Positions 1,114 to 30,227 are shown, numbered from the stretch's first letter. The stretch: DNA of 64,000 bases from Candidatus Latescibacterota bacterium (GCA_965262145.1 OZ253501.1:1695366-1759365), one strand, 5' to 3'. Notes: generated from the sequence alone by a model not told the origin. Translations and numbers: made by a program.

Positions 1114-1227
1114 AGATATGGGCCTGTTTGTATTCTCTTTGACGATTTCCCTATCTTCGCGTATAAGTTTAAGAGACGGGAGAATATTCTTTGAGACTTC
1201 GCATGAGAATTATTGCGGGAATATACC

Positions 1228-2541
1228 ATGAGCAATGTCATTGAAGAAATTGATCGGCTGAAAGAGGAGTTAGACGCATTTCGACCATTGCCTTCTGATG
1301 TTCTCGACCGGATAGGGCAAAAGCTCCGAATTGAGTCGAATTATCACTCCAATGCCGTAGAAGGCAATAGTCTGACCCTTGGAGAAACGAGAAGTCTGAT
1401 CCTACATGGGCTGACTGCCCGCGGGAAACCGATGCGCGATCATCTGGACATTAAGGGGCATGATGAGGCAGTAAAGGCGATGGAGGATGCGGTAAGAAGA
1501 GACGAAGCATTCAACGAGGTCTTTATTCGCAATCTCCATGAAGTGTTGTTGAAAGAGCCTTATGAAAACGACGCGATAACGCCAGATGGACAGCGCGTGA
1601 AACGACGCATTGCCATTGGAGAATATAAGACACAGCCAAATAATGTGCGGACTTCTACAGGAGAGATTTATTATTTTACGCCGCCGGATCAGGTGAAACC
1701 GGCGATGGGAGATCTCATAGATTGGTACAGAAGACAAGAGGACGAGGGCGAGCATCCGATTGTTATAGCCGCTACGTTTCACTACCGATTCATCCGCATT
1801 CATCCGTTTGATGATGGTAATGGTCGCCTGGCGCGGCTTTTGATGAATATGATTTTGATCAAACACGGGTACACGGTGGCCGTAGTCCTCGTTGAGGAGA
1901 GAGGTCAATACATCGGGATGCTGGAGCAAGCCGATAAGACCGAAGATTTGGCCGAGTTTATCACCTATATTGCACATTGTTGCGAACATACCCTGAATCT
2001 CCATCTAAAAGCCGCTCGAGGAGAGGATATTGAAGATGTGGGGGATATAAATAAAGAGATCGCGATCTTCAAATGTTCTTTGCAAAAGGGCAGAGGCGAG
2101 ACAATTAATGCGAGAGAGTATGCGGAGAAGGTGCTGTATCCATTATTGTTTTATTGCAAGGAGACAGTTGAGGAGTTTTCCGATCTGTTTGAGAGTATTC
2201 ATACATCTGGCGATTCTACTGTGAGAGAGGCTGACAATCAAATCTCTTCTTTTTCCATACTAGAGGAGATGAGTGACGCTTGGCCTGAAAACGCACTTTC
2301 TATTTTTACTTCCATCGAATTTGATTTATGGGCTTTTCAGGGAAAGCAGAATGACGATTTTGAATTGGAAATTGAAAATGAAGCAGACGCGGATGAATGC
2401 TACTGGAAATTTGATGGTGATTTTACAGGCGAAAGAGTTGGAGGCACATATAAAGGGCAAGATTTAGAGGTCCTCAAAAAGACGTTTAACGAAATGATAC
2501 GGTTCATGATGAACAAGCTATCGGAGCAATCTAATGACTGA
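1228..2541 (+). CDS. Fic family protein (AMPylation/adenylyltransferase fold) with long C-terminal extension
   Basis: Canonical Fic motif HPFDDGNGRLARLLMNMIL (HPFx[DE]GNGRxxR). The frame opens at TTG 1213. ATG 1228 (MSNVIEEIDRL) is the more likely start. Confidence 0.85.
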   Translation: MSNVIEEIDRLKEELDAFRPLPSDVLDRIGQKLRIESNYHSNAVEGNSLTLGETRSLILHGLTARGKPMRDHLDIKGHDEAVKAMEDAVRRDEAFNEVFIRNLHEVLLKEPYENDAITPDGQRVKRRIAIGEYKTQPNNVRTSTGEIYYFTPPDQVKPAMGDLIDWYRRQEDEGEHPIVIAATFHYRFIRIHPFDDGNGRLARLLMNMILIKHGYTVAVVLVEERGQYIGMLEQADKTEDLAEFITYIAHCCEHTLNLHLKAARGEDIEDVGDINKEIAIFKCSLQKGRGETINAREYAEKVLYPLLFYCKETVEEFSDLFESIHTSGDSTVREADNQISSFSILEEMSDAWPENALSIFTSIEFDLWAFQGKQNDDFELEIENEADADECYWKFDGDFTGERVGGTYKGQDLEVLKKTFNEMIRFMMNKLSEQSND

Positions 2542-2616
2542 AAAGCCGAGCAAGAGAGAACCTAAAAGAGAGCAAGAGACAAGGGAATCATAAGAAAACG
2601 CACGGAAAGGGAAGCT

Positions 2617-2928
2617 GTGAACGCTAGAATTGAGATACCAGGAGACGAGATTGCTGAGTTCTGTCGGCGCAATCATATTCAGCGCCTGGCACTATTTGGA
2701 TCGGTGCTGAGGGACGATTTCACGCCTGAGAGCGACGTGGATGTTCTGGTGGCGTTTGAGCCGCATGTACGTATCGGGTTTGCGTTTATCACTATACAGG
2801 ACGAGTTGTCAGAGATACTTGGTCAGAGAGTGGATATGCATACCTTCAGAGGAGTTGAAAATAGCCGCAATTGGTTGCTTCGGGAAGAGATACTCAATTC
2901 AGCAGAGGCTGTGTATGAGCAAGCGTGA
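2617..2928 (+). CDS. mntA: MNT-type nucleotidyltransferase antitoxin (HepT/MNT TA system)
   Basis: 103 aa. Minimal nucleotidyltransferase motif 'LFGSVLRDDFTPESDVDVLV' (GSx...DxD). GTG start is preceded by AAAGGGAAG. Confidence 0.8.
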   Translation: MNARIEIPGDEIAEFCRRNHIQRLALFGSVLRDDFTPESDVDVLVAFEPHVRIGFAFITIQDELSEILGQRVDMHTFRGVENSRNWLLREEILNSAEAVYEQA

Positions 2929-3259
2929 TGACCAAATAAGCCTCGTAGATATGCTAAACCACGCTAAAGAAGCCGTAGATTTGTTGGGCGGAGCAAGCTT
3001 AGAAGACTTGATAGGCGACCGGGTAATGCAACTCGCCCTGCAAAAGTTGGTGGAGGTTGTGGGTGAAGCGGCTAACCGCGTTTCTGAGGGGACGCAACAG
3101 CAACATACATCGATAGCTTGGGGGGAGATTATCGGAACGCGCAACCGGATGGTTCACGGTTATGATGATGTTGACTTGAGTATTCTTTGGGATATTATCA
3201 AGAACGATTTGCCGCAGCTCATTGGGCAACTTGAAGCACTCGTTTTGAAAAGCACTTGA
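2915..3259 (+). CDS. hepT: HepT (DUF86) HEPN RNase toxin
   Basis: Carries the Rx4HxY HEPN motif 'RNRMVHGY'. ATG 2915 overlaps the mntA stop (2928) by 14 nt, a typical TA operon arrangement. The listed ORF 2741..3259 over-extends 5' into mntA in another frame. Confidence 0.8.
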   Translation: MSKRDDQISLVDMLNHAKEAVDLLGGASLEDLIGDRVMQLALQKLVEVVGEAANRVSEGTQQQHTSIAWGEIIGTRNRMVHGYDDVDLSILWDIIKNDLPQLIGQLEALVLKST

Positions 3260-3327: not shown

Positions 3328-3975
3328 ATGAAAGTGCTGGTTTTGTCGGGGCCGAACCATCGGTTTGATGCAAGTGCCGAGGTTATTAATGGGTTTTTGG
3401 GTGCTCAAGACGATTTGTCTGTGGCGCTTGAAGACAATAAGGATGTGTTGACTTCAGATGCTTTGAACGATTTTGATGTGCTGGTACACGGTACGGGATT
3501 CACGCGCACAGAGCGGGAGGCAGATGGGACGGTGAATCGTCTGCGGGATTTGACGCCCGAGCAAGAAGAGGGGCTATTCGATTTTGTGGCAGGTGGCAAA
3601 GGTCTGGTGGGCATTCACGGTACGGCCTGGTGGATTGGCGGGAAAGCCGTGGATTTGATTGGCGGGCACGCAAACTGGCATCCGCCGGGATTGACGTTCA
3701 CCGTGAATATTGCAGATGACGCACACCCCATTACACAGGGGGTGGATGATTTTGAAGTGGAAGACGAGATTTATATGTCGGCCTGGGATCCCACCGTTCA
3801 CATTTTGGCAACTGCGGATTGGAGCGATAAGCAGCATCCCATGGCCTGGGTGAAGGGTTATGGCGAAGGACGGGTATTTTATACGACTCTGGGACACGGG
3901 CCAGGTACATTTGAGCGAGCGGCGATGCAGCAATTAGTGACGCAGGGCGTGAGGTGGGCTGGAGGGAACTCGTAA
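3328..3975 (+). CDS. ThuA-like (trehalose-utilisation) class-I glutamine amidotransferase-like domain protein
   Basis: 215 aa with ThuA-family features (…WHPPG…, GYGEGRVFYTTLGHGPGTFE). RBS AAAGGAGGAAAAA. Confidence 0.7.
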   Translation: MKVLVLSGPNHRFDASAEVINGFLGAQDDLSVALEDNKDVLTSDALNDFDVLVHGTGFTRTEREADGTVNRLRDLTPEQEEGLFDFVAGGKGLVGIHGTAWWIGGKAVDLIGGHANWHPPGLTFTVNIADDAHPITQGVDDFEVEDEIYMSAWDPTVHILATADWSDKQHPMAWVKGYGEGRVFYTTLGHGPGTFERAAMQQLVTQGVRWAGGNS

Positions 3976-4624
3976 TGCTTAGATTTGCCGAAGAACTCAT
4001 GCTTTTGATACTCGACGACGAGAATGGGAGGTTTGCTCGCGTGCCAGACCGGCTGATGCGGTACGCGCTGGCCGGTGGTGTGTTGATGGATTTGGCACTG
4101 GAAAATCGGATTGATACGGACTCAAAAATTTGATCCTCGTCGATTCGACCCCGGTTCAGGATAGCTTGCTCGATCCGACGCTCGCGGATATTGCCCAGGC
4201 GACCGATACTAAGGATGCGCGTTTTTGGGTGGAACGCACCGCGCTTCGCGCCGATGAGATTCGAGAAGTGGCACTCAACCGGCTCGTAGAACAGGGTATT
4301 CTACAGCGCGAGGAGGACCGGTTTTTGTGGGTATTCCAGTCGCGGCGCTATCCCATTGTTGACAACACGGCTGAGCGCGAGGTCAAGCTGAGGATTATGG
4401 AGGTGCTGTTTAGCGACCAGATACCCGATCCGCGCGATGTGGTGATTATCGGATTGGCGCATGCATGCGATATATTCAAGGAAATCCTGTCCGCACGCGA
4501 ACTGGCGCGTGTTGCCGATCGCATCGATCAGGTGCGAAAGCTGGATTTGATCGGCCAGGCCATGTCGCAGGCGATCACAGATATCGAGCTATCACTCGCC
4601 CTCGCCGTGCAGATGATGCCGTGA
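3975..4624 (+). pseudogene. GPP34/GOLPH3-family protein gene interrupted by a -1 frameshift in an A5 homopolymer (4124-4128)
   Basis: Frame A (3975-4133) encodes MLRFAEELMLLILDDENGRFARVPDRLMRYALAGGVLMDLALENRIDTDSKI*, a GPP34 N-terminus. Frame B (4115-4624) continues with the GPP34 C-terminal region. Inserting one A in the aaaaa run restores a single ~216-aa ORF. Confidence 0.6.
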
Positions 4625-4693: not shown

Positions 4694-5977
4694 TTAAACC
4701 TGAAGCTCTGCGGGGTCATTGATGCGCGCGCCTTCGGGGGCAGGGACTGAGCCTGCGAGCAATGGGTCGCGAGTTGTTTCCATCCAGGTTTGGAGGCGAT
4801 GGCGCAGGTCGTCTATCGCGTCCTGATGGTTGGAGTCAGAGGCGAGATTGTTGGTCTCATATGGGTCAAAAATGAGGTCGTAGAGTTGTTCGTGGGGCTG
4901 ATTTTGCCGTCGCCAGCCCTGGGTGAGAAAGTAGGACTTGCTCGGGCTGCCGTCGCAGTTGATGTCGCCGGGGCGCAGTGTGGGATACCAGTGGCGGATG
5001 TATTTCCATTTTTTTGTGCGAATGGCGCGTTGTGGGTCGTAATAGCTGTGGTAGTTGACTTCTGCGAAAATTTCATCGTGGATTTCATCTGTTTCTTCGC
5101 GGACAAGTGGCAGCACGGATTTGCCTTGCAGCCAGTGGGGATGGTCTATGCCGATCACGTCGCACAAGGTGGGGAAGAGGTCAATTTGAGAGACCATGCC
5201 ATCGATGACTTTGCCGCCTGAGAAACCCGGTCCGCGCATGATAAGCAAGACGCCGATGCCGTGATCGGTGAGGTTGCATTTCATCATGGGGAATGCAATG
5301 CCGTGGTCTGTGGTGCTGATGACAAGAGTGTTGTCGGAAAGTCCGGCACGATCTATGGCGTTGAGGATGCGCCCGACTTCTGTATCGAGGATGCGAACGC
5401 AGGTTTTGTAAGCGGCGGTATCGTATCGGGTTTCAGGGGTGTCGGGCAAAGGTGCGGGGGGGATGCAATAGCGCGGGTCGTCTCCAGGCCCTGGTTCGGG
5501 AAAGCTGCGATGGGTGACGGTATATCCGACGTCGAGAAAGAAGGGCTTGTCGTGAGATCTGTTGAGAAATTCAATGGCCGCATCTGTGGTCGTCTGTTGA
5601 TTTTTCTCTGTGTCGAATATTTCGTCATAACCGATTTCCGAGGGATCGGCTGCGGGGGGGCGACCGACGTGCTGAAAACCTGAGAGGGCGGTTGTGTAAC
5701 CCGCTTTTTTGAGCGTATGAACGAGGTGATGGCTGTAATCCTTGAGGCGAAAACCGCGGTGTGCCAACCCCAGCATGCCGCAACTATGGGGCCATTGTCC
5801 GGTCAGGAGTGCGGCTCGGCTCGGCGAACAGGTCGGGTTGGCGCAAAATGCCTGGCGAAAGAGAACGCCCTGCTCGGCAAGGCGCTGAAAATTCGGGGTT
5901 GGCATGGCATGCCCAAAGGGCTGAATGTAGCGACCCGTGTCGTGAGAGTGGATGTAGAGGATGTTTGGATGGGCCAT
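4694..5977 (-). CDS. Formylglycine-dependent sulfatase (arylsulfatase family)
   Basis: 427 aa. Sulfatase signature 'CSPSRAALLTGQWPHSCGM' (C-x-P-x-R). RBS AGGAGAA. Confidence 0.85.
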   Translation of the reverse strand: MAHPNILYIHSHDTGRYIQPFGHAMPTPNFQRLAEQGVLFRQAFCANPTCSPSRAALLTGQWPHSCGMLGLAHRGFRLKDYSHHLVHTLKKAGYTTALSGFQHVGRPPAADPSEIGYDEIFDTEKNQQTTTDAAIEFLNRSHDKPFFLDVGYTVTHRSFPEPGPGDDPRYCIPPAPLPDTPETRYDTAAYKTCVRILDTEVGRILNAIDRAGLSDNTLVISTTDHGIAFPMMKCNLTDHGIGVLLIMRGPGFSGGKVIDGMVSQIDLFPTLCDVIGIDHPHWLQGKSVLPLVREETDEIHDEIFAEVNYHSYYDPQRAIRTKKWKYIRHWYPTLRPGDINCDGSPSKSYFLTQGWRRQNQPHEQLYDLIFDPYETNNLASDSNHQDAIDDLRHRLQTWMETTRDPLLAGSVPAPEGARINDPAELQV

Positions 5978-5996
5978 TGAATTCTCCTGTGATTAT

Positions 5997-7403
5997 TTAT
6001 AGATACGCTCGAAGGTGTTTGAGGGCGCGGCCATTGTCTATTGCTTCTCGTGTCTGTTGAATTGAATCGTGGGGATCGGCGGTGAAACCGAGCAGATAAT
6101 CTGTGAGGGCGGCATTGAGTACGATGCGGTCGTAAACAGGACCTTTTTCCCCAGAGAGGGCTGCAAGACCGAGTTTGGCAAAGGTCCGCGCATTGACGGC
6201 TTTGGGGCGTGGATTTTGTGCGTAGTGAAAGCCGTAAGTGGCGGGATTGATGTCGCAAGCATAAGTTTGACCGGCGCGAAAGCCCTGTGAAAAATTGATG
6301 GCGTTGCGCGTTTTATCGGTGGGTTTTCCCAGGCGAAGGGAAAAGTGGCTGCTGCCTTCTTCGCCCTTGATTGCGACGGCAGATGTAAATCCGGTCTCGC
6401 GTGCGATTTTCAGGAGGGGGATTTCGTATCCCGAATGGTAATAACCGATGACAATGTGATTGCTGCCAGCGCAGGAGAAGAGTTGCTGCGCTTTTTCTGT
6501 GGCAGACCACGGGGGGCGTTTGCCAATGTGGGCGCGAAGGTCGCGGGATGCGTAGGCCGCCGGGGCATATTCGCGCTGGCTGATGTAGGCAAAGCCAATC
6601 TCGGGATTTTCGAGTCGTTCTGCTGCTTCTGAAAGCGACAAATTGGTGCGGGCATTGAGGGCGTTGAGGATCTGTTCGTCAGTCACACCCCATTTGGGCG
6701 GCATGGCATCTACACCGTGAAGCACGGTGGAGCGGCCGAGGGCCGCGCGCAGTGCCGCGACAAAAAGGGTGGGTTTGAAGTAGCGGGTTGAGCCATTGTA
6801 GGGTTGGCCAAAGTGGGTGAGGTTATTCACCTGTACTGCGTGTGCGCGTTCGGGTGCAAAGGTCGAGTGGAGGTATCCGCGCACCTCGTCGTAGGATTCG
6901 AGATTCATGCGCTGGCCGATCAGCGCAGCACCTTTGAGGCTGCCGCGAACGCTGTCGGTGAGAATGGCTTCGCACATAAGGCGCGTTTGGTCGTAGGTGA
7001 GATGCCCGCCGTTGAGAATGGTTTTTAGCGCGGAAATGACGGTTTGCTCATTGGGTGATTTTGTGGGACAGTGATCTTTAAGGCCGAATATATATTGCAG
7101 GTCGGGTGGCAAGTGGGTGTGTAGAGGAGGGGTATATTGTTCAAAGGCATTGATTTCCGCCTGGCTCCAGGCTGTTTTGGGCGGGTAATTGCGCCGCAGA
7201 TGCATTGCTGCAAAAAAGGCTCCCATCTGGACATCGGAGACCGGATGACGCGCTTTGTTTTGCAGCGTATTGAGGATGGCATCCAGGACGGGTTGTGGCT
7301 GTGGATCGCTGGATTTTTTGCCCAGAGGACGAGATTGCGTGGGGCCTGTACACACACGCGCCTGGGCTTCGAGGACGAGGGGGTTGGGGTCGGATAGTGG
7401 CAT
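5997..7403 (-). CDS. Divergent TrpD-like (glycosyl transferase family 3 / anthranilate phosphoribosyltransferase fold) protein
   Basis: 468 aa. The N-terminal helical region (…PVLDAILNTLQNKARHPVSDVQMGAFFAAMHLR…) and 'GSTRYFKPTLFVAALRAALG' parallel the TrpD 'GTGGDGANTFNISTAAAFVAAAAG' region. The GTGGD loop is not conserved. Family placement is tentative. Confidence 0.4.
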   Translation of the reverse strand: MPLSDPNPLVLEAQARVCTGPTQSRPLGKKSSDPQPQPVLDAILNTLQNKARHPVSDVQMGAFFAAMHLRRNYPPKTAWSQAEINAFEQYTPPLHTHLPPDLQYIFGLKDHCPTKSPNEQTVISALKTILNGGHLTYDQTRLMCEAILTDSVRGSLKGAALIGQRMNLESYDEVRGYLHSTFAPERAHAVQVNNLTHFGQPYNGSTRYFKPTLFVAALRAALGRSTVLHGVDAMPPKWGVTDEQILNALNARTNLSLSEAAERLENPEIGFAYISQREYAPAAYASRDLRAHIGKRPPWSATEKAQQLFSCAGSNHIVIGYYHSGYEIPLLKIARETGFTSAVAIKGEEGSSHFSLRLGKPTDKTRNAINFSQGFRAGQTYACDINPATYGFHYAQNPRPKAVNARTFAKLGLAALSGEKGPVYDRIVLNAALTDYLLGFTADPHDSIQQTREAIDNGRALKHLRAYL

Positions 7404-7752: not shown

Positions 7753-8091
7753 ATGGAGATTAAAACGCAACGAGAAAATGGAATTTTAATCGCGAACGTG
7801 AATGGCCGGGTTGATAGTGCCAATGCCCGCGAGTTCGAAAATGTATTAAGCTCCGCAATCAGTGACGACGATACCTGTGTGATTGTAGATTTTGGAGGGC
7901 TTTCTTACATTAGCAGCTCGGGTCTGCGGGTCATTTTGCTGGTTGCCAAGTCACTCCGGAATCGCAACGCGGAATTCGCGCTTTGCTCGCTTTCTGGCCC
8001 CATCGGAGAGGTCTTTAAAATCAGCGGATTTGACAAGATCATTTCGATCTATGATTCACAGGCAGAGGCCTGCGCCGCACTGGGCGGATAA
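7753..8091 (+). CDS. STAS-domain anti-sigma-factor antagonist (SpoIIAA/RsbV-like)
   Basis: 112 aa with the conserved phospho-serine region 'LSYISSSGLRVILLV'. Confidence 0.8.
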   Translation: MEIKTQRENGILIANVNGRVDSANAREFENVLSSAISDDDTCVIVDFGGLSYISSSGLRVILLVAKSLRNRNAEFALCSLSGPIGEVFKISGFDKIISIYDSQAEACAALGG

Positions 8092-8580
8092 CCTGCCTTT
8101 CGCTTTGTCGCGTGTGCTCTCAAGCCATAGATGGAGGACTTGGCGTGTTTTAACCTATTTCATAGACCAAGACTCGCCCTGTTTTAATCTGTGTGCTTTC
8201 CACAATCGGGTTGCAGGCGAAGCCATATTATCGAACTCACACGCCGATCCGATTTTCCTGTGTATCTGTTCCATAGATCACTATTTCAGGGTATCTCTCA
8301 TGCCCTGTATATCCGCTTTCAAACCTCCCGAATAACAGCCACCCCTCTATAATTCAGTAACTGGTGTCGTGCAGTTTGTCATTACACAATGACCGATTTA
8401 GCAATCGTTCATATTCTTTAATACCTCTCCTCGGATTCTTCTCTCTTACAACGCAGCGAGTAATGGGGATAAGTCCATAAAGCGAGGACGTTTGCTATCG
8501 CAATGATTGTACACCGATCAAAGAATGCTTAACGTCGGTATAAGTAAGACACCATTAATATATCAATATAAGAGGCGTAT

Positions 8581-9756
8581 ATGACAAAGGCGCAATACAA
8601 AATCCTCGTGGTTGATGACGAACCCGATCTCGAACATCTTATGCGGCAGCGCATGCGGCGCGATGTGCGCGCTGGGCTCTACTCATTTGCCTTTGCCCAA
8701 AACGGCGTTGAGGCTCTTGAGGTGCTGAATAAGGATCCGGATATTGACATGGTGCTCTCGGACATCAATATGCCGCGGATGGATGGTCTCACGCTGCTCG
8801 AACAGATGCCGCTAGTCGATCCCAACCTCCGTGCTGTGATTGTCTCGGCTTATGGCGACATGAAAAACATCCGTACGGCCATGAACCGGGGAGCGTTCGA
8901 CTTTGTTACCAAGCCCATTGATTTTCAAGATTTGCGGGTCACTATTGAGCGCACTTTGGTACACCTGAAAATGTGGCGCGAGGCTGTGGCTTCTCGGGAT
9001 AAGTTGGTGGCACTGCAAAACGAGCTTCGCGTTGCCCATGATATGCAGCAGTCGATCCTGCCGAAGACCTTCCCCAATAAACCCGGTTATCAGTTGTTTG
9101 GAAACATGGAGCCTGCACGCGAAGTGGGGGGCGATTTTTTCGATGTTATCAATCTGGAAAACGGCCGCGTTGGTCTGGCAATTGCCGATGTCTCCGACAA
9201 GGGCGTACCGGCTGCCCTTTTCATGATGTCCAGCCGCACGTTGTTGAAAGGGGCCGCCATCGGCAAATCGAACCCGGGCGATGTGCTGACCGAGGTCAAT
9301 AGTCTCTTGCAGGAAGACAACGACGCTGCGATGTTTGTCACCGTGTTTTATGCCGAATACAATCCGGCGAATGGATTGCTGTCGTACGCCAATGGGGGGC
9401 ACAATCCTCCGATTGTCATCCACGCGGATGGTAGCTCGACTATACTTCCCCGGACCGACGGAATTGCTCTGGGTATTCTGCCAGACATCCGATACGAACA
9501 AAACGCAGTCATTTTGGCGCCCGGCGATGTCCTCGTGCTTTACACAGATGGCGTCACCGAAGCTGTGAATGCGCAGAATGAGGAGTTTGGGATGGAGCGC
9601 TTGCGTGCGGTATTGGTATTGGCCCAGGCGAGTTCGCATGATGTCCGCGAGATAAACCAGGCGGTATTTCAAGCTGTGCAGGCATTCGCGGGCGAGATAC
9701 CCCAGTTCGACGATATGACCTGTATGACACTTTTTTGCAGAGAGTTAGAGACATGA
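8581..9756 (+). CDS. Response-regulator receiver fused to PP2C-type (SpoIIE/RsbU-like) serine phosphatase
   Basis: N-terminal receiver domain (ILVVDDEPD…LSDINMPRMDGL…K). C-terminal PP2C domain (GGDFFDV…, YTDGVTEA, …FDDMT). RBS AAGAGG. Confidence 0.85.
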   Translation: MTKAQYKILVVDDEPDLEHLMRQRMRRDVRAGLYSFAFAQNGVEALEVLNKDPDIDMVLSDINMPRMDGLTLLEQMPLVDPNLRAVIVSAYGDMKNIRTAMNRGAFDFVTKPIDFQDLRVTIERTLVHLKMWREAVASRDKLVALQNELRVAHDMQQSILPKTFPNKPGYQLFGNMEPAREVGGDFFDVINLENGRVGLAIADVSDKGVPAALFMMSSRTLLKGAAIGKSNPGDVLTEVNSLLQEDNDAAMFVTVFYAEYNPANGLLSYANGGHNPPIVIHADGSSTILPRTDGIALGILPDIRYEQNAVILAPGDVLVLYTDGVTEAVNAQNEEFGMERLRAVLVLAQASSHDVREINQAVFQAVQAFAGEIPQFDDMTCMTLFCRELET

Positions 9757-10175
9757 AGGTGAAACGTTCTTTGTGTATTGAGTCGGATCTCAGCGAGTTG
9801 GAGCGGCTCCACGACGCTGTGGCAGAACTCGGCGAGGTGGGGAATTGGCCCCCCGATCTCGTGTTTCAGGTCGATCTCGTCCTCGAAGAGTTGATCGTCA
9901 ATACTGTGAACTACGGGTACGACGACGATGCACGCCACGAGATTGAGATTGCGCTGACCTCGGATGCGGATGTCTTCACCGTTGAGATTATAGACGGCGG
10001 GCATGCCTTTAATCCACTGAGCGACGCTCCCGAACCGGATCTGGATGCAGAGATAGCAGATCGCCCGATAGGGGGGCTTGGCATCCATCTGATGCGCGCT
10101 ATGATGGACGAAGTACACTATCGGCGCGAGCAGGATAAGAACTATCTTACTCTGATCAAGCGGAGGAATGGATGA
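9753..10175 (+). CDS. Anti-sigma regulatory factor / GHKL serine kinase (RsbW/SpoIIAB-like)
   Basis: HATPase_c motifs present: N-box 'EELIVNTVNYG', 'IIDGGHAFNP', 'GGLGIHLMRAM'. The ATG at 9753 gives an ATGA overlap with the upstream stop. Confidence 0.7.
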   Translation: MKVKRSLCIESDLSELERLHDAVAELGEVGNWPPDLVFQVDLVLEELIVNTVNYGYDDDARHEIEIALTSDADVFTVEIIDGGHAFNPLSDAPEPDLDAEIADRPIGGLGIHLMRAMMDEVHYRREQDKNYLTLIKRRNG

Positions 10176-11344
10176 GGAGAACGCGCTACAGTTGTGCGGT
10201 TTTACTACTCGTCTTGCTAATTGTAGAAATCCGTGCGGAAGAATCTGGAATCTCTGACGAGCGCATCCTTTTTGGACAGTCCGCCGCCTTTAGTGGTCCC
10301 GCTCGAGAATTGGGCAAGAACATGCGGATCGGAATTGAGGCAGCTTTTCAAGAGGCTAACGCGCGGGGCGGCGTGCATGGTCGGCAGCTAATATTGTTGT
10401 CTTTCGATGACGCATACGAACCCGAAGCTGCCATCGCCAACACCCAGCGGCTGATTGAGAAAGAAGGGGTTTTCGCGCTGATTGGTGCTGTTGGCACGCC
10501 CACTTCGCGCTCTGCTACTCCTATCGCCGAGCGCGCGGGTGTTCCCTACATCGCTCCCTTTACCGGTGCTGCCTTCCTGCGTGAAGCCAGGTGGAAAAGT
10601 GTGATCAATCTGCGGGCGTCTTATAATCAAGAGACCGAGGCTATGGTCGCTCGTTTGACCACAGACCTGGGCATTAAACGCATCGCCGTGATGTACCAGG
10701 ACGACTCTTTTGGGCGAGCGGGCTATCGCGGCGTGCGGCAGGCACTCGAACGGCGTAGCATGGAACCGGTTGCAATAGGCGTGTACCCGCGCAATACCAC
10801 AGCGGTGAAGACGGGCTTGCTCAACCTGCATAGTGCAAACCCCGATGCAGTCATCCTGATTGGGGCCTATCAACCGGTAGCAACGCTGATTGCCTGGGCG
10901 CGACACACGGGGCTGGATCCCGTATTCATGACCATCTCCTTTGTGGGCAGCAACGCTTTGGCCGAAGAACTCGGTCGCGCTGGTGCTGGGGTCTTTGTCA
11001 CTCAGGTCGTACCTTTTCCAACAGATGAGATCCCCCGCGTTGGTATTGCCTATCGCCGTGCCCTGGCGACCCACGCGCCCGAAGCAACTCCTGGCTTTGT
11101 CTCCTACGAAGGCTATTTGGCGGGTCGATTGGCTATCGTCGCTCTCGAACGCTGTGGTAGGGAGGTTGACCGCGCCGGGTTTCTCAAGAGTTTGCGTAGC
11201 ACAGACATCATTGATCTCGATGGCTTTGAACTTCTCTATGGCGAAAATGATAATCAGGGTTCAGACGCTGTTTTTCTTACCGTGATTGGCACAGATGGCA
11301 GTTATCGCTCGATCCAAACGCTGCGGGACGCAATAAAGCCATGA
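10172..11344 (+). CDS. Periplasmic substrate-binding protein, type-1 PBP (LivK/branched-chain amino-acid-binding-like), probable co-sensor of the adjacent kinase
   Basis: 390 aa. Signal peptide (LLLVLLIVEIRA), then the PBP1 pattern (LIGAVGTPTS…, VPYIAPFTGA…). ATGA overlaps at both ends. Confidence 0.75.
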   Translation: MRRTRYSCAVLLLVLLIVEIRAEESGISDERILFGQSAAFSGPARELGKNMRIGIEAAFQEANARGGVHGRQLILLSFDDAYEPEAAIANTQRLIEKEGVFALIGAVGTPTSRSATPIAERAGVPYIAPFTGAAFLREARWKSVINLRASYNQETEAMVARLTTDLGIKRIAVMYQDDSFGRAGYRGVRQALERRSMEPVAIGVYPRNTTAVKTGLLNLHSANPDAVILIGAYQPVATLIAWARHTGLDPVFMTISFVGSNALAEELGRAGAGVFVTQVVPFPTDEIPRVGIAYRRALATHAPEATPGFVSYEGYLAGRLAIVALERCGREVDRAGFLKSLRSTDIIDLDGFELLYGENDNQGSDAVFLTVIGTDGSYRSIQTLRDAIKP

Positions 11345-13503
11345 TTGACATACTAAAACCTCTGCTTGAAGGCCGCTACCGAATCTCGACGCAACTCTAT
11401 CTGGGCATTGGCGGGGCTGTTGTCCTCACTATGGGGGCGAGTCTGGTTGGCTGGCTTTCCTTCAACAGCGTGGGTGACGCGCAAAGTCGCGTGAATGAAG
11501 GCAGTGTGCCCGGAATGGCAGCCGCATTTGGAGTCGCTCAACAAAGCGGTGCTCTTGTAGCTGCAGCCCCGCGCCTGGTCGCAGCTGCAACACTGGATGT
11601 CTTTGATCAGGTTACCGCTGAAATCGGCAAAGAGCAAAGTGCTTTTGAAGCGCAGTTGGTGGCTCTGACGCAGCAAGGTGAAGAAGAGAAACGCTTCAGT
11701 CGCATTCGCGCCCAGGGTGGTACGCTGATCTCAAATATCGAGGCAATTGAAAGCTCGGTAGCCGAGCGTTTTGATCTGCAAGCACGAAGCGAAGCCCTGC
11801 GTGCAGAACTGGTCAAAGTGCGCAACGAACTGGTTGATGTCATGGGTCCGCTTATTGACGATCAGCTGTTCTACGCTATGACGGGGTATCGCAATCTCGG
11901 CGAAGCACCCGCGCCGCTTACACAGCACTTGTCGAGAAAAGAGTTGGATCGCTATCGCCATCTGGCTGCGTTGCAAGCAGACGCGACCATAGCAATCCAG
12001 CTTCTGTCGAGTGCTTTCAATCTTTCGGACGCACCCCTGATTGAACCATTGCGGGAGCGCTTTGAGGCTGCTAAAGACAGGATTGAATGGAGTCTATCGG
12101 CACTCGGAACAGCCCGTACACGCAGTCAGATCGCTTCGATATGTGCCCGCCTGTACCAGTTGGGGCTGGGAGAGCAAGGGGGCTTCGACCTGCGTGCACG
12201 AGAACTCGAACTCGCTGCGCACCAGCGAGATCTGCTCGCACACAATCAGTCTCTGGCCCTTGATCTAATCGCTGAGGCCGAAGGGCTGGTAAATGCGGCC
12301 CGCATAAGTGCGGAGGAAGCTACCCTCGCTTCCACGCAGGCCATCGGCACCGGGCGCAGTCTTCTGTTGGTTTTGAATGTGATCAACATTACTGGCGCGT
12401 TGTTGATCGCCTATTTATTTGTGGGACGAATGCTGTTGCCCCGTCTCGAGCGACTATCCGAACGGATGCGCCGCATGGCTGATGGCGACCTGGAGGGCAA
12501 GGTCGAGATCGGTGGGCACGACGAGGTGGCAGACATGGCCGCAGCCCTTGAGATTTTTCGCCGCCACGCTCTGGAGGTGCAGCGCCTGAATCTGGTGGAA
12601 AAACTGGCCGAAGAGTTGCAATCTAAGAACGCAGAGCTTGAAAAGGTGCTGGACGACTTGCGGGTGGCGCAGGACCAGATTGTCATGCGCGAGAAATTGG
12701 CCGCGCTCGGCGAACTCACCGCAGGTGTGGCGCATGAGATCAAAAATCCGCTGAATTTTGTGAAAAACTTCTCGGAGGCGTCGGAAGAACTGATGGAAGA
12801 GTTGACTGAGGTACTGGACGAGAGTGTCGAAGCACTGGACGAGGAGCAGCGCGAATTGGTTGACGAGATATGCCAGGATCTCACCGACAACATGGGGCGC
12901 ATCCTCCAACACGGCAATCGCGCCGACCGCATCGTTCACGATATGCTCATGATGGGGCGCGGCTCTGGTGAGCGGCAGCCCACTGAGATCAACAATCTGC
13001 TCAATGAACACGCCCGCCTTGCCTATCACAGCGCACGGGCGACCGACCCGGATTTCAATTTGACCATCGAGCAGGATTTCGACCCGGAGGCGGGGCAAAT
13101 CGAGGTCGTCCCGCAGGATCTGGGGCGCGTCTTCCTCAACATGGTAGGCAATGCTTGTTATGCTACCGACGAGAAACGGCGTGCTATCGAATCAGATGCT
13201 GGCGAGACCTATTTCCCGACCCTGTCGCTGATTACCAGACGCCTGGATGATCGCATAGAGGTGTGCATACGGGACAACGGGAATGGGATGCCGCCCGAGG
13301 TTATCGAGAAAATTTTCAACCCATTCTTTACCACCAAACCGACAGACAAGGGCACTGGCCTCGGCCTTGCTCTTTCCAACGATATCGTGCGCGAACACGG
13401 GGGAACCATCCGGGTCGTATCCGAACCCGGTGAATTCACCGAGATGACAGTCGAATTGCCTTTGGTGCCGCCCGCGGTGACGATTGAAGAGGTAGCGAGC
13501 TAA
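11341..13503 (+). CDS. Sensor histidine kinase (2 TM, large periplasmic domain, HAMP, HisKA, HATPase)
   Basis: 720 aa. H-box 'AHEIKNPLNFV'. HAMP region 'RMRRMADGDLEGKVEI…'. G-boxes 'IRDNGNGMPPE' and 'GTGLGLALS'. Confidence 0.85.
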   Translation: MIDILKPLLEGRYRISTQLYLGIGGAVVLTMGASLVGWLSFNSVGDAQSRVNEGSVPGMAAAFGVAQQSGALVAAAPRLVAAATLDVFDQVTAEIGKEQSAFEAQLVALTQQGEEEKRFSRIRAQGGTLISNIEAIESSVAERFDLQARSEALRAELVKVRNELVDVMGPLIDDQLFYAMTGYRNLGEAPAPLTQHLSRKELDRYRHLAALQADATIAIQLLSSAFNLSDAPLIEPLRERFEAAKDRIEWSLSALGTARTRSQIASICARLYQLGLGEQGGFDLRARELELAAHQRDLLAHNQSLALDLIAEAEGLVNAARISAEEATLASTQAIGTGRSLLLVLNVINITGALLIAYLFVGRMLLPRLERLSERMRRMADGDLEGKVEIGGHDEVADMAAALEIFRRHALEVQRLNLVEKLAEELQSKNAELEKVLDDLRVAQDQIVMREKLAALGELTAGVAHEIKNPLNFVKNFSEASEELMEELTEVLDESVEALDEEQRELVDEICQDLTDNMGRILQHGNRADRIVHDMLMMGRGSGERQPTEINNLLNEHARLAYHSARATDPDFNLTIEQDFDPEAGQIEVVPQDLGRVFLNMVGNACYATDEKRRAIESDAGETYFPTLSLITRRLDDRIEVCIRDNGNGMPPEVIEKIFNPFFTTKPTDKGTGLGLALSNDIVREHGGTIRVVSEPGEFTEMTVELPLVPPAVTIEEVAS

Positions 13504-13538
13504 AGGGAAGAGGAGGCCCCCTGGCCGAACGAGTCAAG

Positions 13539-13958
13539 ATGTGGTCGTTCCTTGGCCTGGTGGCGATTACCGCGGGACCTGATATTGTTGATCACTACTG
13601 GGCGGTCATTATTGGTGCCATTGGCGCGGTTTTGTGTACCGCCGGGATCAGGTTCTTGGAGAAGGTCAAGCTGGATGATGTTGTCGGGGCAATACCGGCT
13701 CACTTGTTCGCCGGTATCTGGGGTACTTTGGCGGTCTGCATAGTTGGCGGCGGCAACTTGGGCGTGCAACTGATCGGCATCGTGGCAGTTGGCGCATTCG
13801 TGTTTGTCACTTCGTGGGTGTTGTGGCGTGTGATTGCGATGACGTTGGGCGTGCGTGTGTCGCGCCAGATCGAACAATTGGGGCAGGATGTCGGGGAATT
13901 GGGAATTGACGCCTATCCCGAATTTGTGCTTATGCCAGAAGAAGATGATGAGGAATAA
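13539..13958 (+). pseudogene. Ammonium transporter (Amt/AmtB) C-terminal fragment only (last ~3 TM helices and cytoplasmic tail); gene remnant
   Basis: 139 aa aligns to the AmtB C-terminus: '…LDDVVGAIPAHLFAGIWGTL…' matches 'VDDALDVFGVHGVCGIVG', and '…LGVRVSRQIEQLGQDVGELGIDAYPEF' matches 'GLRVPEEQEREGLDVNSHGENAY'. The N-terminal ~270 aa of a normal Amt are absent. The histidine kinase stop is 36 nt upstream. Confidence 0.65.
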
Positions 13959-24485: not shown

Positions 24486-27272
24486 TTACTCCCATGTGTT
24501 GTTTGTAAAATCCAGTTGATTGGCGTTTTCGGATACGGCGCGTTTGATTTGATCTGGAACGCCATTGGGGAACTCTGCCTGTATTTCCAGCCGGACATCC
24601 ACCTGTGCTTGTGGGTCGCTTTGAAGAAGGCTGATGATTTCTTCGGCAATTTGTACAAGACGCATCTTTGCAACGGATGGATTTACATTCGCTGTGCCGA
24701 TGAATGTATGTATAGAAGTCTGTTCCTCTGGGGGGGGAGTCTCTTCGGGTGGTGGGGCAGGGGCGGGAGGACTGCCAGGGGGAGGGTCTGGGTCTATATC
24801 GGGATCAGGCGTTTGATTTTCAGCTTCGTATTGCTTTGCGGCTTCTGGTTCGATCAACAAGAGTGTGTCGTCGAGTTGTACATTTGCATCACCTAACTTG
24901 AAGCCATCGAATTTGCCATCGCTATGTCCATAAGCTGTACCAAAGAAATCTCGGCTGTCAGCCCCTGTCGCGATAACCTGAGCAAATACATCGCGATTTT
25001 TGAGGCGCGGAAGGTAGAGGTACTGCATCGTATCTTCCCAAAATACCATAGCCTCAATGGCGGGTTTATCGGGTTTCCAATAAAGCTCTTGTAGTCTGGT
25101 GCGAAGGTGAATAGGTGACCATGTGATAATTACCAGTTCGTTTTCCACGCATACGCGCTCAATTTCATTTCCCAATGGGGTGCCATGCGTGTTCAATGCA
25201 AATGCTTCGACAATGAGTTTGCGGTCTGTGGGCGTGTTTTGCACCGCACACAAAAGCCATTTATAACATTCTCGCGCAATTTGTGGGAGAACATCTTCGG
25301 CGGTTTGAAGCTGTTTTTGTGCCTGTTGGACCTGAAGCGTGTCCAGCACTAGGCGCATCTCAGATACATCTTCGACGATTGATTTCCAGGCCAAAGCCAC
25401 CCGAATACAATCGCGCAACCGCCCCAACAAACTATAATCTGGCGCGAGGAATACCAACCGATTGCCCCGGTACCTGGGTTTTGCACCGTGATTGCGCACA
25501 TAGTCCAGAATCGCTTCGGTTGAGAGCCGCGTTTCTTCACGAGAATAAAAATTTTCAGGCAAGAGATAGATCAGGCGCAATGCGCTGTCATCGGGAACAT
25601 CGGCATGGGGAGTAAATATGTGCTTGCCCTCGAAAAACGAGATGCCGGTTGACATTTTTTTCAGTACTTCGGCCAGCTTGCCGCGCACTTCGTTTTTGTC
25701 ATCAAAGCGTCTCTTGCGGTCTTCCATCTCGCGCCGAAGATTTGCTCGCGTATCAAACCAGAACCGCGTGACTTCTCGCGCTTTGTCGCCAGAACTGTTG
25801 AGATAATGCAAGCGATCCGATAGGCGATTGAGGGCGTCTGAATAAACCGAAGATGGTTGACCGGGTTGCAAACACCCCAATAGTACACGCGATCTATCGA
25901 GTCCCCGTGTGTTGGATGTTTGTACAGCAGAAGAAGGCGCACTCCCCAGAAAAAGCGTTCTTGCCACGCGGCGGGCAGCCTGAACAGCACCAAACCGAGG
26001 CTCTTTGTTTTCGAGTTCTGTTGTTTCTGCGCGTTCACCGTCTATGTCTCTTTCTATGACGGGATCCCAGCCCGCTGGCAAATAATAGGTCAATTCGTTG
26101 CGGGAGCCGCCATCGTACAGGGGCAAACTGCTGGGCAAAATCATCGTGTCTTTATTGTCGTCTTCCCATAACCGATAAATTACTTTGGCCATCAGTTTGA
26201 GTACGCCGCGCGTACGCTGGAACCCATCTATGGTAGCCCAATCTTCGTATAGCCGATCAAAGACTTCGGGGTGGATGGGATAGGCTTGTATCAAGCGGTC
26301 GAAATAGCGGGCTTCTTGTGTTTCTCCCGGTAGCTTTGCACCTTCGGCAACATACGCATCGGCATAAGCCCTGCAAACTGTTTCGCGGGTTTGTTCATCG
26401 GTGATGGTTTGGAATAAACGCCGCCTTACGATTTCAAATGCCTCTTCGGTTGCAACGGGCTTCCACAGGGCCTGTACGCGCCCAAATGTTTTTTCCAATG
26501 CACGCAAAGCCATGATCCCCCGGTTGCCACCTGCTTCCACTGTAGATTCGGGTAAGGATCCCAAAATCACGGCATTGGGTACTAATTTACACGCTTCTGT
26601 GAGGGCTTGAATAAATGACAAATTGCTGTCATAACTTCCACCGCTCAAATTTTGTCCTTCCTGAAATTGCCGAATATAAGCTACCAATTCGTCAATGAGG
26701 ATCACACAGGGTGCGTAAGTTTCCAGGAGTGTTTTTAGCACATCTTTGCCCGGTGATGTGCCATTTGCATCGGCTGCTTTGACAAGCTCAAATCCCTCTT
26801 TTTCCCCCAATTGGTAGGCGAGTTCACCCCACAATGTGCGAATGCCGTGTTTCCATGGCTGACCGGGTGCATGAGCCTGACCGTCTAAAATGGCAACCCG
26901 CGCTTTGGGTACGTCCATCATCCCGGCCTTGTCGAGCAGTGTTGGAATGCCCGCCAAATCACTCAATTCACAATTTCTCGTTGTGAGATGATAGACTGCC
27001 AATAGCGTGTGCGTTTTGCCGCCCCCAAAAGCCGTTTGCAATTGAATGACTGGCTCTCCACCTGTACCATTGAGCCGCTGCGCGACTTGCATCAGCAGCG
27101 TTTCCATGCCTTCTGTGATGTAGGTGCGCTGAAAAAAAGCAATGGGGTCTTGATATTCCCGCGTGGCTTCACCCTTGCGAACGGCTGTTATATCGGCGGC
27201 AAATTCCGATTGCTGAAACGTGCCTTCGAGCACATCGGGATGAGGAATAACGACTTCTCTCCAGGGTTTCAT
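24486..27272 (-). CDS. DUF499-family (BrxC-like) P-loop ATPase, component of a DUF499/DUF1156/SNF2 three-gene defence system
   Basis: Start '[14 protein letters not shown]…[11 protein letters not shown]' is typical of DUF499. Walker A '[10 protein letters not shown]'. Length ~928 aa. Confidence 0.75.
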
Positions 27273-27326
27273 AATACCTGCTCCGGTTGAATTTACTGTT
27301 CGGCCTTTGGGCAAGAGGGGCGTGGT

Positions 27327-30227
27327 TTATTCAAAAAGCCGTGATTGCACGGGTTCAGTCACAACTGCACTTTCAATGCCTGTCCAGCTTGTGACCAGTT
27401 CGTTATATGCTCGCGCATCCTCTGCCCATCCCTTGCGTTCACAAAGGGTGTAGAGACGATAAGCCAATTGCCGCGTGGCCCCGCGTTGGGACTTCACTGC
27501 TCCAAGTTGAGCACCGGCCACTGTTTCGCCCGATTGTTTTAATGTGCGAATCAAATGATGCAGGGTTTCCCAGATTGGGTTGCGTGAATCTGTGTGTGGA
27601 TTCCAATTGGTGGGATATTCAGACCACCTGTGCAAACGCACCTGCCCCCCGCCAGACGCAATGACCCCGGCATTTTCCACCCCATCGACACTTGTTCCCT
27701 TTGCGCGCGAAAGGGTATCTGCATCGCCATAGGGTCCCTCGCGCCAGCCGTATTGTTCAAACCAGTGCAAGCAGAATTGCGTATCGGCATCAAAATCGTC
27801 TTCAGCCAGGTACCGGTTGATAAGCTGAAGCGCTGTTCGCACGGGCATTGGTGTCCCATCGGCTTCAAGCACAGCCTGGTATTTGGAAAAAACAGCCATT
27901 CCCGGTCCAATGATGGCCTGAGACAAATCCACTGGTGCAACCGGAGACCGATCTTCACCGGCCCCTCGGGTCATCTCATCCAGTGCTTCTGGCAATACCG
28001 CATCTAACTCTCGCAAAAACTCTCGTCGAGAAATAACAGGTGCATCAGCAGAACGCTTTTTGCAAACGAGAATGATGCTGGAGGCGAGGGCATTGGTACC
28101 TGCTGCAATCTGGCGAGACTTCATTTCAGTACGCATCGGCCAGGTGCCCGAAAGCTGAAATCCTGCTTGATCAACAGCTTCTAAAAAGGTCTCCCAGCCG
28201 GTGGAAGTTGTGCCCCCGTTGGCTTTTTTTTCCGCCTGCTTGAAGGCATAGTAGATGGTAACGGGAAAACCGGGGTGTGCTTGCTCTGCCAGCCGTTGCA
28301 TCGCCTTTGTCATCCCGCCCATGAAGAATGCCTCTGCCTCATCATTACTGTTGTGGCGGTAGCGCATGGCAACCAATTCATCGGCCTTGGGCGTGGCGAG
28401 TGTGGCAAATAGGTCGGGAAATACCGAGCGTAGCGAACGGCGCAGCCAGATGTAGAAGAAGTCCGAAAGATCAGCGTAGCAGATGTTGTCGTAGTAAGGC
28501 GGATCGGTGGATATGATCATTCCATTTGACAAGTCCTGTGTCTGAGCGTCTGCCTGAACGGCAAAACCAGAAGTATTGATCTCAAGAGGAATACCCTTGA
28601 TCACTCCGGCAACTGAGATTTTGTAGTCACCTGCTGCACCTGCAAAGGGATTTACATCTGGGAAATCCCAAGTCATTGGAATGGCTTGGCGGGCGAATGC
28701 TGTCACGGTTTGTTCTCTTCCTGGTGTCCAACGTGCGATCGTACAAAGCGTGTTGCTCATGCGATCTACAGCAAAAGCCAGGTACACCCCCATCGCTTCT
28801 GCATACGCCGTTGCACCATTGCCGCCATCGCGCAGAGGGCTGTCGTCGTCAGGTAAACCGGCAGCGGTAGCATCGCGCTTGACTTGCTCCATTGCATCTT
28901 GTATCAGGTCGCTAAAAGTTGTGAGAGCGACGAGTTGGCGGGAGGTGAAAAGATCGGCCCATGTGAAGAAGCCGTAACCTCGGCCGCTAACCAAGTTGGG
29001 GGTATCGCGATTCATTGGTTCGTCCGGCTTCCACTTCGGTTTCGCCTCGTGTGCGATGGCTTCCATTTCCGGTGTAGGTGATAGGTACACCCGCCCGCGG
29101 TCGCCCGAGGCCACAATTGCCATGAGCCGTGCGCCCATGCGCCCGCCCATGCTCTCGGCCTTGATGTGGTTGCTCGACATCGGTGCGCCGGATAGCAAGC
29201 AACGGAAGGTTGACCCGCGTCCGAGTTTTGTTCCGGCTTTGGCTGCATCTGGATCCTTTGGCTTGCCTACTTTTAAGATGAAGTGATAGGCGTCTCCTTT
29301 GATGACTGGCTCTATGTAGGCTTCTTTTTTGTTCTTGGTGGAGAGCATAAAGGTCGAAATCAGGGGTACATCTACATGGGCAAAGGCCGGGTTTGGGCTT
29401 TTTACCGTGCGCGCCCACAGCCATGCGATGACTGTGAGTTTGCGTCCCGCGTACTGTTTCAGATCTGACCTTTTGGCGACCATCTCTTCTGTGATGGCGA
29501 TTTTTGGGTACAGATGGCCGATGCGTTTTTCGGCCTGGTCACGCATCCATTTGCCATAGTAGCGCACATCCTCGGCAAGGCCCGTTGCGCCTTTCCACCG
29601 CGCTTTTTGGGCGAGATTTTTCTGCATATCTGGGTTTACTGGCGGTCTGTTAGAAAATTTTGGTGGGATCTCGATCATTGCTTTGTTGATGAGCACAGCA
29701 ACGGGATTGAGGTCTGAGGCGTATGCTTTCAGGCCAAGGCGTTGCGCTTCCAGCGGGATTGCACCTCCGCCTGCAAACGGATCATGCAGGGCAGGGAGTT
29801 TGTCCGGGTTGAACAATTCGGCAGCCTGTGGGTGGTCTTTGTTGAGTTCACACACTTCTCGCCATGACCGACGGATCTCAACCCTTGCCTTTTCCAATAC
29901 TTCCTCGTTTGTGGTGTTTTCCCACCGTACGAGTTCTTCAATGATTTTGAATAGCCGTTTCCGCTCAATAGCGGCGTCCTTTTTATTCACGCCATATTTG
30001 AATCCGTCTCCTTGCTGGTATCCCGGGTCATTCACAAGCTGTGCAAAGATAACCGCGCGTGCCGCAGCAAGTGGTCGCCGTGCCCACCACAGATGCAGGG
30101 TGCTGGGGTGTCCATGTCGAATAGATTTTTCGCGTGCCGCTGCCGCGTTGATCGCGTCCAGAGGTAGCGCAACTTCAATGAGTTTCCTGGGTATTTTGAC
30201 ATTCTGATACATACCTGCTCGTTTCAT
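27327..30227 (-). CDS. DUF1156-family N6-adenine DNA methyltransferase
   Basis: DUF1156 N-terminal signature '[12 protein letters not shown]…[27 protein letters not shown]'. Catalytic motif IV 'DPPYYD'. ~966 aa. Start chosen at M15; M20 is also possible. Confidence 0.8.

Follow-up and report, generated by a model that had tools for sequence, protein, structure and literature searches.

Two-component signalling and partner switching are already joined in some described bacteria. In Mycobacterium smegmatis, the kinase RsfS phosphorylates RsfR, a receiver-PP2C (REC-PP2C) phosphatase, which dephosphorylates the STAS protein RsfB, as was shown experimentally (PMC10950880). RsfS, RsfR and RsfB control the sigma factor SigF via RsbW1, with SigF and RsbW1 placed in a separate partner-switching module, and the neighbours named for the rsfB locus are rsbW2 and a second response-regulator gene (PMC10950880). 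The paper also states, with reference to earlier work, that RsbK of Bacillus cereus activates RsbY in the same manner, and gives phosphorylation opposite effects in the two systems, RsbY being activated and RsfR inhibited (PMC10950880). The wiring from a membrane kinase through a REC-PP2C protein to a STAS antagonist of an RsbW-type kinase is thus already established in RsfS/RsfR/RsfB and in RsbK/RsbY/RsbV/RsbW/SigB. The same wiring appears likely in the locus described here, a five-gene signalling cassette in a 64-kb stretch of DNA (the window) from Candidatus Latescibacterota bacterium (GCA_965262145.1 OZ253501.1:1695366-1759365).

The cassette encodes, all on the + strand, a STAS protein, a REC-PP2C phosphatase, an RsbW-like kinase, a Peripla_BP_6 solute-binding protein (SBP) and a HAMP histidine kinase (HK). 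These five assignments had been made in a first-pass annotation from the sequence, and Pfam searches returned STAS, SpoIIE/PP2C, HATPase_c_2 (GHKL), Peripla_BP_6 and HAMP/HisKA/HATPase_c at the same positions; the ATGA overlaps by which that annotation joined the last four genes can all be read in the sequence (n=3; 9753-9756, 10172-10175 and 11341-11344). The same gene order was found again in 37 GTDB species loci and six further metagenome loci, an arrangement far beyond chance. The ratio of nonsynonymous to synonymous substitution rates (dN/dS) for all five genes against two sister lineages is 0.03-0.20, and the cassette is under purifying selection. The first-pass annotation overlooked a truncated ammonium-transporter gene downstream and a conserved linkage to nitrogen genes, which is the most informative clue to cassette function. 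With some reserve, we favour reading the cassette as a signalling unit spread by horizontal transfer, whose most likely task is to report a nitrogen-related solute outside the cell and to adjust the acquisition of nitrogen. The design itself recombines modules that are already known; what is new is that a Peripla_BP_6 protein is paired with a TorS-type sensor, that the distribution crosses phyla with a bias to symbionts, and that nitrogen genes are linked to the cassette.

Linkage to nitrogen genes and distribution among phyla

In an unbiased census of cassette neighbours, the sole recurrent families were Amt, circularly permuted ATP-grasp (CP_ATPgrasp), Alpha-E, transglutaminase (TGase) and GlnE. 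Genes of these families lie within 10 kb in 20 of the 37 cassette loci and in none of 42 control loci, whose kinases share only the catalytic core with the cassette kinase. The linkage is operonic, with gaps of -4 to ~120 bp, in L007, L012, L017, L022, L028 and L040 (L handles denote related loci), and operonic too in L093, where a single strand reads Amt-PII-STAS-REC-PP2C-RsbW-SBP-HK-ATPgrasp-AlphaE-TGase. The ATP-grasp gene of L007 begins at the base right after the kinase stop codon, and the transglutaminase and STAS genes overlap by 4 bp in both L022 and L028. L048 has its STAS/RsbW pair on the other strand, divergent from REC-PP2C-SBP-HK and co-directional with an Amt/ATP-grasp operon ~1.3 kb away.

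An operon of ATP-grasp, alpha-E and transglutaminase genes (Anbu-type) has been reported as highly expressed under nitrogen starvation, with its function unknown (PMC6376114). The amt gene stands beside or inside this gene string in L007, L010, L017, L026 and L048. In L048 it directly precedes the ATP-grasp gene, and in the other four it separates ATP-grasp from Alpha-E; we did not find an amt gene in such a place in PMC6376114. We found no earlier literature description of a partner switch linked to an ammonium transporter. Given this neighbourhood, the physiological role of the cassette is placed in nitrogen acquisition. The tie to Amt, GlnE and the ATP-grasp/Alpha-E/transglutaminase operon is repeated and often operonic, and the role of that operon has been under question since 2009. 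If the tie is functional, it suggests by what means uncultured marine and sponge symbionts perceive nitrogen in their surroundings.

The window itself retains a trace of the linkage. Downstream of the kinase gene lies the C-terminal stump of an ammonium transporter of the NCBIfam marine subtype, 73% identical to residues 311-460 of the L007 Amt. Two sister genomes (L090 and L091; kinases 90% and 81% identical to that of the window) carry at this position, in identical synteny, a full-length 460-aa Amt that starts 44 bp after the kinase gene. Judged from these alignments, the ancestral operon ran from the REC-PP2C gene through the kinase gene to amt. The stump remains an open frame in several near-identical assemblies, with a dN/dS of 0.12 versus 0.06 between intact copies.

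A scan of one genome per GTDB species detected full-length kinase orthologues (36-74% identity) in metagenome-assembled genomes (MAGs) of seven phyla: Gemmatimonadota, Latescibacterota, Chloroflexota, Actinomycetota, Acidobacteriota, Pseudomonadota and Bdellovibrionota. At least 37 species carry the cassette, the majority being MAGs of marine or sponge symbionts, and the names of many carriers point to sponge symbionts, including the genus Aldehydirespirator, named in a sponge-symbiont genomics paper. The REC-PP2C, binding-protein and kinase genes occur together in 37 loci, of which 34 also gave matches to STAS and the RsbW-like kinase. Among GTDB loci the nearest is that of a Latescibacterota MAG (kinase 74% identical), kinases of 88-90% identity belong to MAGs labelled 'Gemmatimonadota bacterium', and the Chloroflexota copies are closer to the window copy than the Longimicrobiales copies are. 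Kinase identity does not follow taxonomy, which argues for horizontal spread. A duplicated arrangement was seen in the Latescibacterota locus L033 (2958-12211), which has two STAS and two RsbW-like genes, one set with the REC-PP2C gene and the other directly before the SBP-kinase pair, 2.8 kb apart.

Several observations weigh against a nitrogen-sensing role. The nitrogen-linked genes are absent within 10 kb in 17 of the 37 loci, and the loci are not phylogenetically independent, though their arrangements vary (upstream, downstream or divergent). One locus, L016, has only the SBP-kinase pair, without partner-switch genes. In the genome studied here the adjacent amt was lost while the cassette stayed intact, so amt is not the sole target. 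We found no consensus for a sigma-54/NtrC-type promoter in the spacer upstream of the four-gene operon, and a sigma-54 scan over all loci revealed no systematic site upstream of the cassette. Finally, aligning the binding protein with LivK pairs Ser79 with Thr109, Tyr202 with Ala232 and Glu226 with Ser256; although a pairwise alignment at low identity is weak evidence, the replacement of Glu226, the amino-group ligand of LivK, makes the classical amino-acid binding mode doubtful.

Table 1. Cassette genes and associated features, with positions counted from the first letter of the window
Feature	Position	Strand	Basis
STAS single-domain protein, RsbV/SpoIIAA-like antagonist, 112 aa	7753..8091	+	Pfam STAS E 6e-21
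Spacer between STAS and REC-PP2C genes, 489 bp, non-coding	8092..8580	+	Aligns with L090/L091, frame-breaking indels
Response regulator, receiver + PP2C (SpoIIE-type) phosphatase, 391 aa, RsbY/RsfR/RbaY-like	8581..9756	+	Pfam Response_reg E 3e-25, SpoIIE E 1e-52
RsbW-like GHKL serine kinase, HATPase_c_2, 140 aa	9753..10175	+	Pfam E 3e-28; ATGA overlap with upstream gene
Secreted Peripla_BP_6 solute-binding protein, 390 aa	10172..11344	+	Pfam E 3e-59; ATGA overlaps on both sides
Non-hybrid membrane histidine kinase, 720 aa	11341..13503	+	Pfam HAMP + HisKA + HATPase_c
Deletion junction, 36 bases replacing ~1007 bases of L090 (its 10178-11184)	13518..13553	+	blastn of window against L090 and L091
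Ammonium-transporter remnant, C-terminal 139 of ~460 codons	13539..13958	+	Pfam Ammonium_transp, profile positions 261-399 of 399

Switch proteins and candidate outputs

Motif conservation in the three switch proteins was assessed by aligning 36-38 orthologues from related loci. The STAS protein scores 79.7 bits against the NCBIfam anti-sigma factor antagonist superfamily (TIGR00377), passing the cut-off of 53.45. Its predicted phospho-acceptor, Ser55 in YISSSGLR, aligns with Ser58 of SpoIIAA, the phosphorylated residue; the motif YISS(A/S)GLR is at least 90% conserved (38 orthologues), and dN/dS for the gene is 0.03-0.04. In the REC-PP2C protein, whose closest solved structure (3EQ2) is itself a REC-PP2C protein, the receiver motifs DD, SDINMP, SAYGD and TKP, a canonical phospho-acceptor pocket of acidic residues, Ser and Lys, are conserved in 38 orthologues, as are the PP2C metal motifs GGDFxD, ADVSDKG, TDGVTEA and DDxT; the Asp of SDINMP is the predicted phosphate acceptor. 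This is the sole receiver protein in the operon, and its gene clusters with that of the histidine kinase in each of the 37 cassette loci. Full-length REC-PP2C genes also adjoin kinases that share the core type but have unrelated sensors, in L066, L076, L079 and L089, which supports the kinase and the REC-PP2C protein as a cognate pair. The RsbW-like gene most likely starts at ATG 9753 rather than at the upstream TTG 9735. Its product has a conserved N-box (EE..N), D.G.pFdP motif and GGLG box (36-38 orthologues). The resemblance to RsbW and SpoIIAB is weak (PDB matches at E 7e-5 to 3e-4), and the scores fall far below the NCBIfam equivalog cut-offs (38 versus 145 bits for RsbW, 36 versus 135 bits for SpoIIAB); on this measure the protein is an orthologue of neither.

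The sequence of relatives aligned with the spacer after the STAS gene carries frame-breaking indels, and the spacer is therefore considered non-coding; a 147-aa open reading frame (ORF) at 7892-8335 was rejected as a gene because such indels in relatives leave it unconserved. The length of this non-coding spacer indicates that STAS is probably its own transcription unit, and the promoter/operator of the four-gene operon probably lies in the spacer. A perfect palindrome, GTCATTACACAATGAC, at 8378-8393 upstream of the REC-PP2C gene is kept in the 90% and 81% sister loci, the L090 copy differing by one base, and may be an operator site. The spacer gave no Rfam family match and no excess of promoter/terminator consensus matches. 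Arrangements around the STAS gene differ in some relatives: L007 and L010 have a Na+/H+ exchanger with a CBS domain (5461-7171) inserted between the STAS and REC-PP2C genes, no remnant of which was found in the window's spacer; in L092 the STAS gene is relocated and followed by a pyridoxal-dependent decarboxylase gene (12075-13634); and the Amt-PII pair of L093 (4059-5552) is directly upstream of STAS.

In the mechanism we propose, the secreted Peripla_BP_6 protein would bind a periplasmic ligand and dock on the TorS-like sensor domain of the kinase. Docking would alter kinase autophosphorylation at His465, and the kinase would transfer phosphate to, or remove phosphate from, the REC-PP2C receiver, whose state would change PP2C activity toward phospho-Ser55 of the STAS protein in either direction (compare RsbY with RsfR). 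The RsbW-like kinase would re-phosphorylate STAS, and unphosphorylated STAS would capture the RsbW-like kinase, freeing whatever else the kinase or STAS holds. This signal flow, which the first-pass annotation had also proposed, is the best-supported reading, with experimental precedent in RsfS/RsfR/RsfB. The final target would be encoded outside the cassette and the output would be nitrogen scavenging, by way of Amt, GlnE and the ATP-grasp/Alpha-E/transglutaminase system, whose genes adjoin the cassette or share its operon in relatives. The last step could take either of two branches, a distal sigma factor or direct protein-protein control of Amt, GlnE or the ATP-grasp proteins.

Three of the four features that define an RsbV/RsbW/RsbU-type module are found in the cassette (STAS, GHKL kinase and PP2C), and the fourth, a linked sigma factor, is missing. 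Pfam detected no Sigma70-family domain in ~57 ORFs chosen across the 64-kb window, and phmmer of all window ORFs of at least 60 aa with SigF, RpoD and ECF (extracytoplasmic function) seeds found no sigma factor; the SigF and RpoD sequences served as seeds only. The census (10 kb) likewise showed no sigma family as a recurrent neighbour in the 37 loci, and none recurs in the 43 related loci taken together. The only sigma genes found near the cassette in related loci are incidental: L007/L010 have, ~3 kb upstream, an ECF gene paired with its own zf-HC2 anti-sigma gene, and L034 has an RpoD-like gene at a distance of 3 kb. The first-pass annotation was thus right that the locus has no sigma factor, and neither of the findings it named as refuting its reading, a failure of the PP2C or GHKL assignments or a sigma gene flanking the operon, was observed. 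Its further step, from the absence of a local sigma factor to a non-sigma target, is weak, since SigF belongs to a module separate from the rsfB locus; a missing local sigma factor is no proof of a non-sigma output.

An ordinary anti-sigma switch is therefore the first alternative to be weighed. The RsbW-like kinase would sequester a distal group-3 or housekeeping-type sigma factor, the STAS protein would release it and the nitrogen genes would at most belong to that regulon. We regard this as possible but rather doubtful. The anti-sigma-antagonist score of the STAS protein favours it, as does the fact that the only named relatives of the RsbW-like kinase are RsbW and SpoIIAB. There are also precedents for control at a distance, with RsfS/RsfR/RsfB forming their own locus yet controlling SigF through RsbW1 (PMC10950880), and HsbR and CrsR regulating RpoS, a sigma factor outside their own module (PMC6482189). 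Nevertheless, no sigma gene is found in the window or recurs within 10 kb in the 37 loci of seven phyla, the RsbW-like kinase (38 bits against a cut-off of 145) lies far under the RsbW/SpoIIAB equivalogs, and the similar RbaV/RbaW/RbaY system showed no sigma partner in two-hybrid tests (PMC3999984). As a partner switch conserved in seven phyla with no sigma factor close by, the cassette offers a clean test case for non-sigma outputs.

More tentatively still, the STAS/RsbW-like pair could be a post-translational controller of nitrogen acquisition with no anti-sigma role, sharing a transcript with its targets in the manner of GlnK and AmtB. It would bind or phosphorylate the marine-type Amt, GlnE or the ATP-grasp/Alpha-E/transglutaminase proteins when the binding protein and histidine kinase sense an external organic-nitrogen ligand. 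We consider this unlikely, though if it were true sponge symbionts of seven phyla would be exchanging the cassette as a mobile nitrogen-sensing operon, and it would provide a first functional handle on the Anbu-type ATP-grasp operon.

Sensor kinase, binding protein and state of the genome

The kinase consists of a first transmembrane segment (TM1), a ~300-aa TorS-like periplasmic sensor, TM2, HAMP, a dimerization and histidine phosphotransfer (DHp) domain with His465 and an acidic insert, and the catalytic domain. Among 18 kinase homologues no variation was seen in the H (His465), N, G1, F and G2 boxes. The protein ends ~10 residues past HATPase_c with no receiver or Hpt match, and with the catalytic domain as its last domain the kinase is non-hybrid; Pfam found no Hpt domain in the locus and no CHASE3 match in the kinase. 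The window kinase just passes the Pfam TorS_sensor_domain cut-off (27.5 versus 27 bits), and the domain (PF21689) was found in 24 of 36 kinase orthologues. A profile of the sensor domain built from the 36 orthologues matches TorS of the TorS-TorT complex (3O1H, E 9e-9; 3I9Y, E 1.6e-8) over 268 of 300 positions, effectively its full length, with the next match being coiled-coil noise (E 0.04). NCBIfam TMAO_torS (TIGR02956) also aligns to kinase residues 19-437 (E 8e-44), with a total score of 150 bits versus a cut-off of 676. As three independent sequence-profile tests agree, the sensor is judged homologous to that of TorS. The family is rare, with 486 representatives at E <=1e-3 among 1.84 billion proteins.

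TorS is stimulated only via the periplasmic binding protein TorT (PMC8050422). Every one of the 37 cassette loci places the binding-protein gene directly before the kinase gene, and the two mostly overlap by 4 bp. The first-pass proposal that the Peripla_BP_6 protein is a co-sensor gains strength from this and from the full-length TorS-sensor match, and we predict that it is a dedicated co-sensor of the histidine kinase. The kinase would then be a binding-protein-dependent histidine kinase with a Peripla_BP_6 partner on a TorS-type sensor. The best solved relative of the binding protein, 4KV7 (E 1e-70), bears no more specific name than probable Leu/Ile/Val-binding protein, and the score against the LIV-binding-protein family PRK15404 is 81 bits versus a cut-off of 477; by that score the protein is not a LivJ/K orthologue.

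Peripla_BP_6 proteins are mostly ATP-binding cassette (ABC) transport receptors and the closest solved relatives are annotated as Leu/Ile/Val-binding proteins, but it is very improbable that the binding protein is a transport protein next to the kinase by chance, with the kinase sensing directly in some other way or sensing nothing periplasmic, given the start/stop overlap with the kinase gene, the adjacency in every locus across seven phyla, a sensor of the type whose characterised member requires a binding protein, the distance from the LIV-binding-protein family, and the absence from the census of any recurrent ABC-transporter family (the sole ABC gene found in the window is a lone ATPase 7.6 kb away, with no LivHMGF-type neighbours).

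It is equally hard to credit that the cassette is a decaying leftover, its operon partner already deleted amid other gene erosion in a symbiont: the ~1-kb deletion in amt, a split GPP34 gene and a near-identical contig with a fragmented kinase (L004) point that way, yet all five ORFs are intact with every catalytic motif present, the low dN/dS holds against two sister lineages and several independent assemblies carry intact copies of identical sequence. Unrelated genes are broken in L004 and L001 too, which gives both the look of noisy long-read contigs. The GPP34 (Golgi phosphoprotein 3-like) gene follows a ThuA gene (3328-4624); its N-terminal part is split off in the window, while L091 and L095 have the gene whole (216 aa). 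The literature reports GPP34 as a marker of sponge symbiosis (PMC11706023).

Elsewhere in the window, a Fic-domain protein gene precedes a nucleotidyltransferase/HepT toxin-antitoxin pair (1213-3259). A defence-island-like block on the - strand (24486-39815) comprises DUF499 (942 aa), DUF1156/N6-adenine methylase (980 aa), three or four small ORFs without a Pfam match, an AAA_15/AAA_21 ATPase (542 aa), an SNF2/ResIII helicase (978 aa) and then RecJ. Also on the - strand, at 45119-49479, a bacterial serpin (E 6e-120) adjoins a sulfatase and two PhyH dioxygenases; the window encodes another sulfatase at 4694-5977. Such eukaryote-like and sulfatase genes fit a sponge symbiont.

Comparison with described systems

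The phosphatase and the kinase of the switch are encoded by separate genes, as the first-pass annotation stated in contrast to HptB/HsbR/HsbA; the separation already holds in RsbK/RsbY, RsfS/RsfR and RbaV/RbaW/RbaY. The cassette differs from the RsfS and RsbK systems at its two ends. The RsfS and RsbK sensors are of the CHASE3 type (with an added GAF domain in RsbK) and have no binding protein described, in contrast to the TorS-like sensor and Peripla_BP_6 partner here; RsbK is moreover a hybrid kinase and the cassette kinase is not. At the output end, those systems act on a known sigma factor, while the cassette has a nitrogen-related neighbourhood.

On the input side the nearest likeness is TorS/TorT, which also combines a TorS-type sensor with an adjacent, transporter-independent binding-protein gene (LuxQ/LuxP is another example of a kinase stimulated by a binding protein). 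TorT, however, is a Peripla_BP_1 protein, and the only Peripla_BP_6 signalling partner named in the part of a 2021 review cited here is the chemoreceptor BasT (PMC8050422). TorS is a hybrid with receiver and HPt domains that feeds the OmpR-type regulator TorR and torCAD, whereas the cassette kinase ends after its catalytic domain and, by analogy with the systems above, would feed a phosphatase. No OmpR-type regulator or trimethylamine N-oxide (TMAO) reductase was found in the window ORFs scanned, and what is shared with TorS is the sensor domain only.

RbaV/RbaW/RbaY of Rhodobacter capsulatus, also Gram-negative, likewise has a REC-PP2C protein (RbaY), an RsbW-like kinase and a STAS protein as separate genes. 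No sigma gene or partner has been identified for it, and the STAS protein may be the output (PMC3999984). It differs from the cassette in that no cognate histidine kinase or binding protein has been identified and rbaY is unlinked from rbaVW; its phenotype concerns gene transfer agent production and stationary phase.

The first-pass annotation had drawn its analogy with HptB/HsbR/HsbA of Pseudomonas aeruginosa, and that comparison is sound in so far as this system and CrsR/CrsA of Shewanella oneidensis share with the cassette a two-component input into a PP2C/kinase/STAS switch, but it is a more distant one than RsbK/RsbY, RsfS/RsfR or RbaV/RbaW/RbaY. In HsbR and CrsR a single protein combines receiver, PP2C and kinase, and the input arrives via hybrid kinases and the Hpt protein HptB. 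In the cassette, by contrast, the three activities reside in separate proteins, with a simple non-hybrid kinase and no Hpt. HsbA binds FlgM, an anti-sigma factor, besides HsbR (PMC6482189).

The likeness to GlnK (PII)-AmtB lies in operon logic alone, a small signalling protein co-transcribed with Amt, with no sequence relation. Unlike that pair, most cassette-adjacent Amt genes lack an adjacent PII gene, the exception being L093, where an Amt-PII pair leads directly into the STAS gene.

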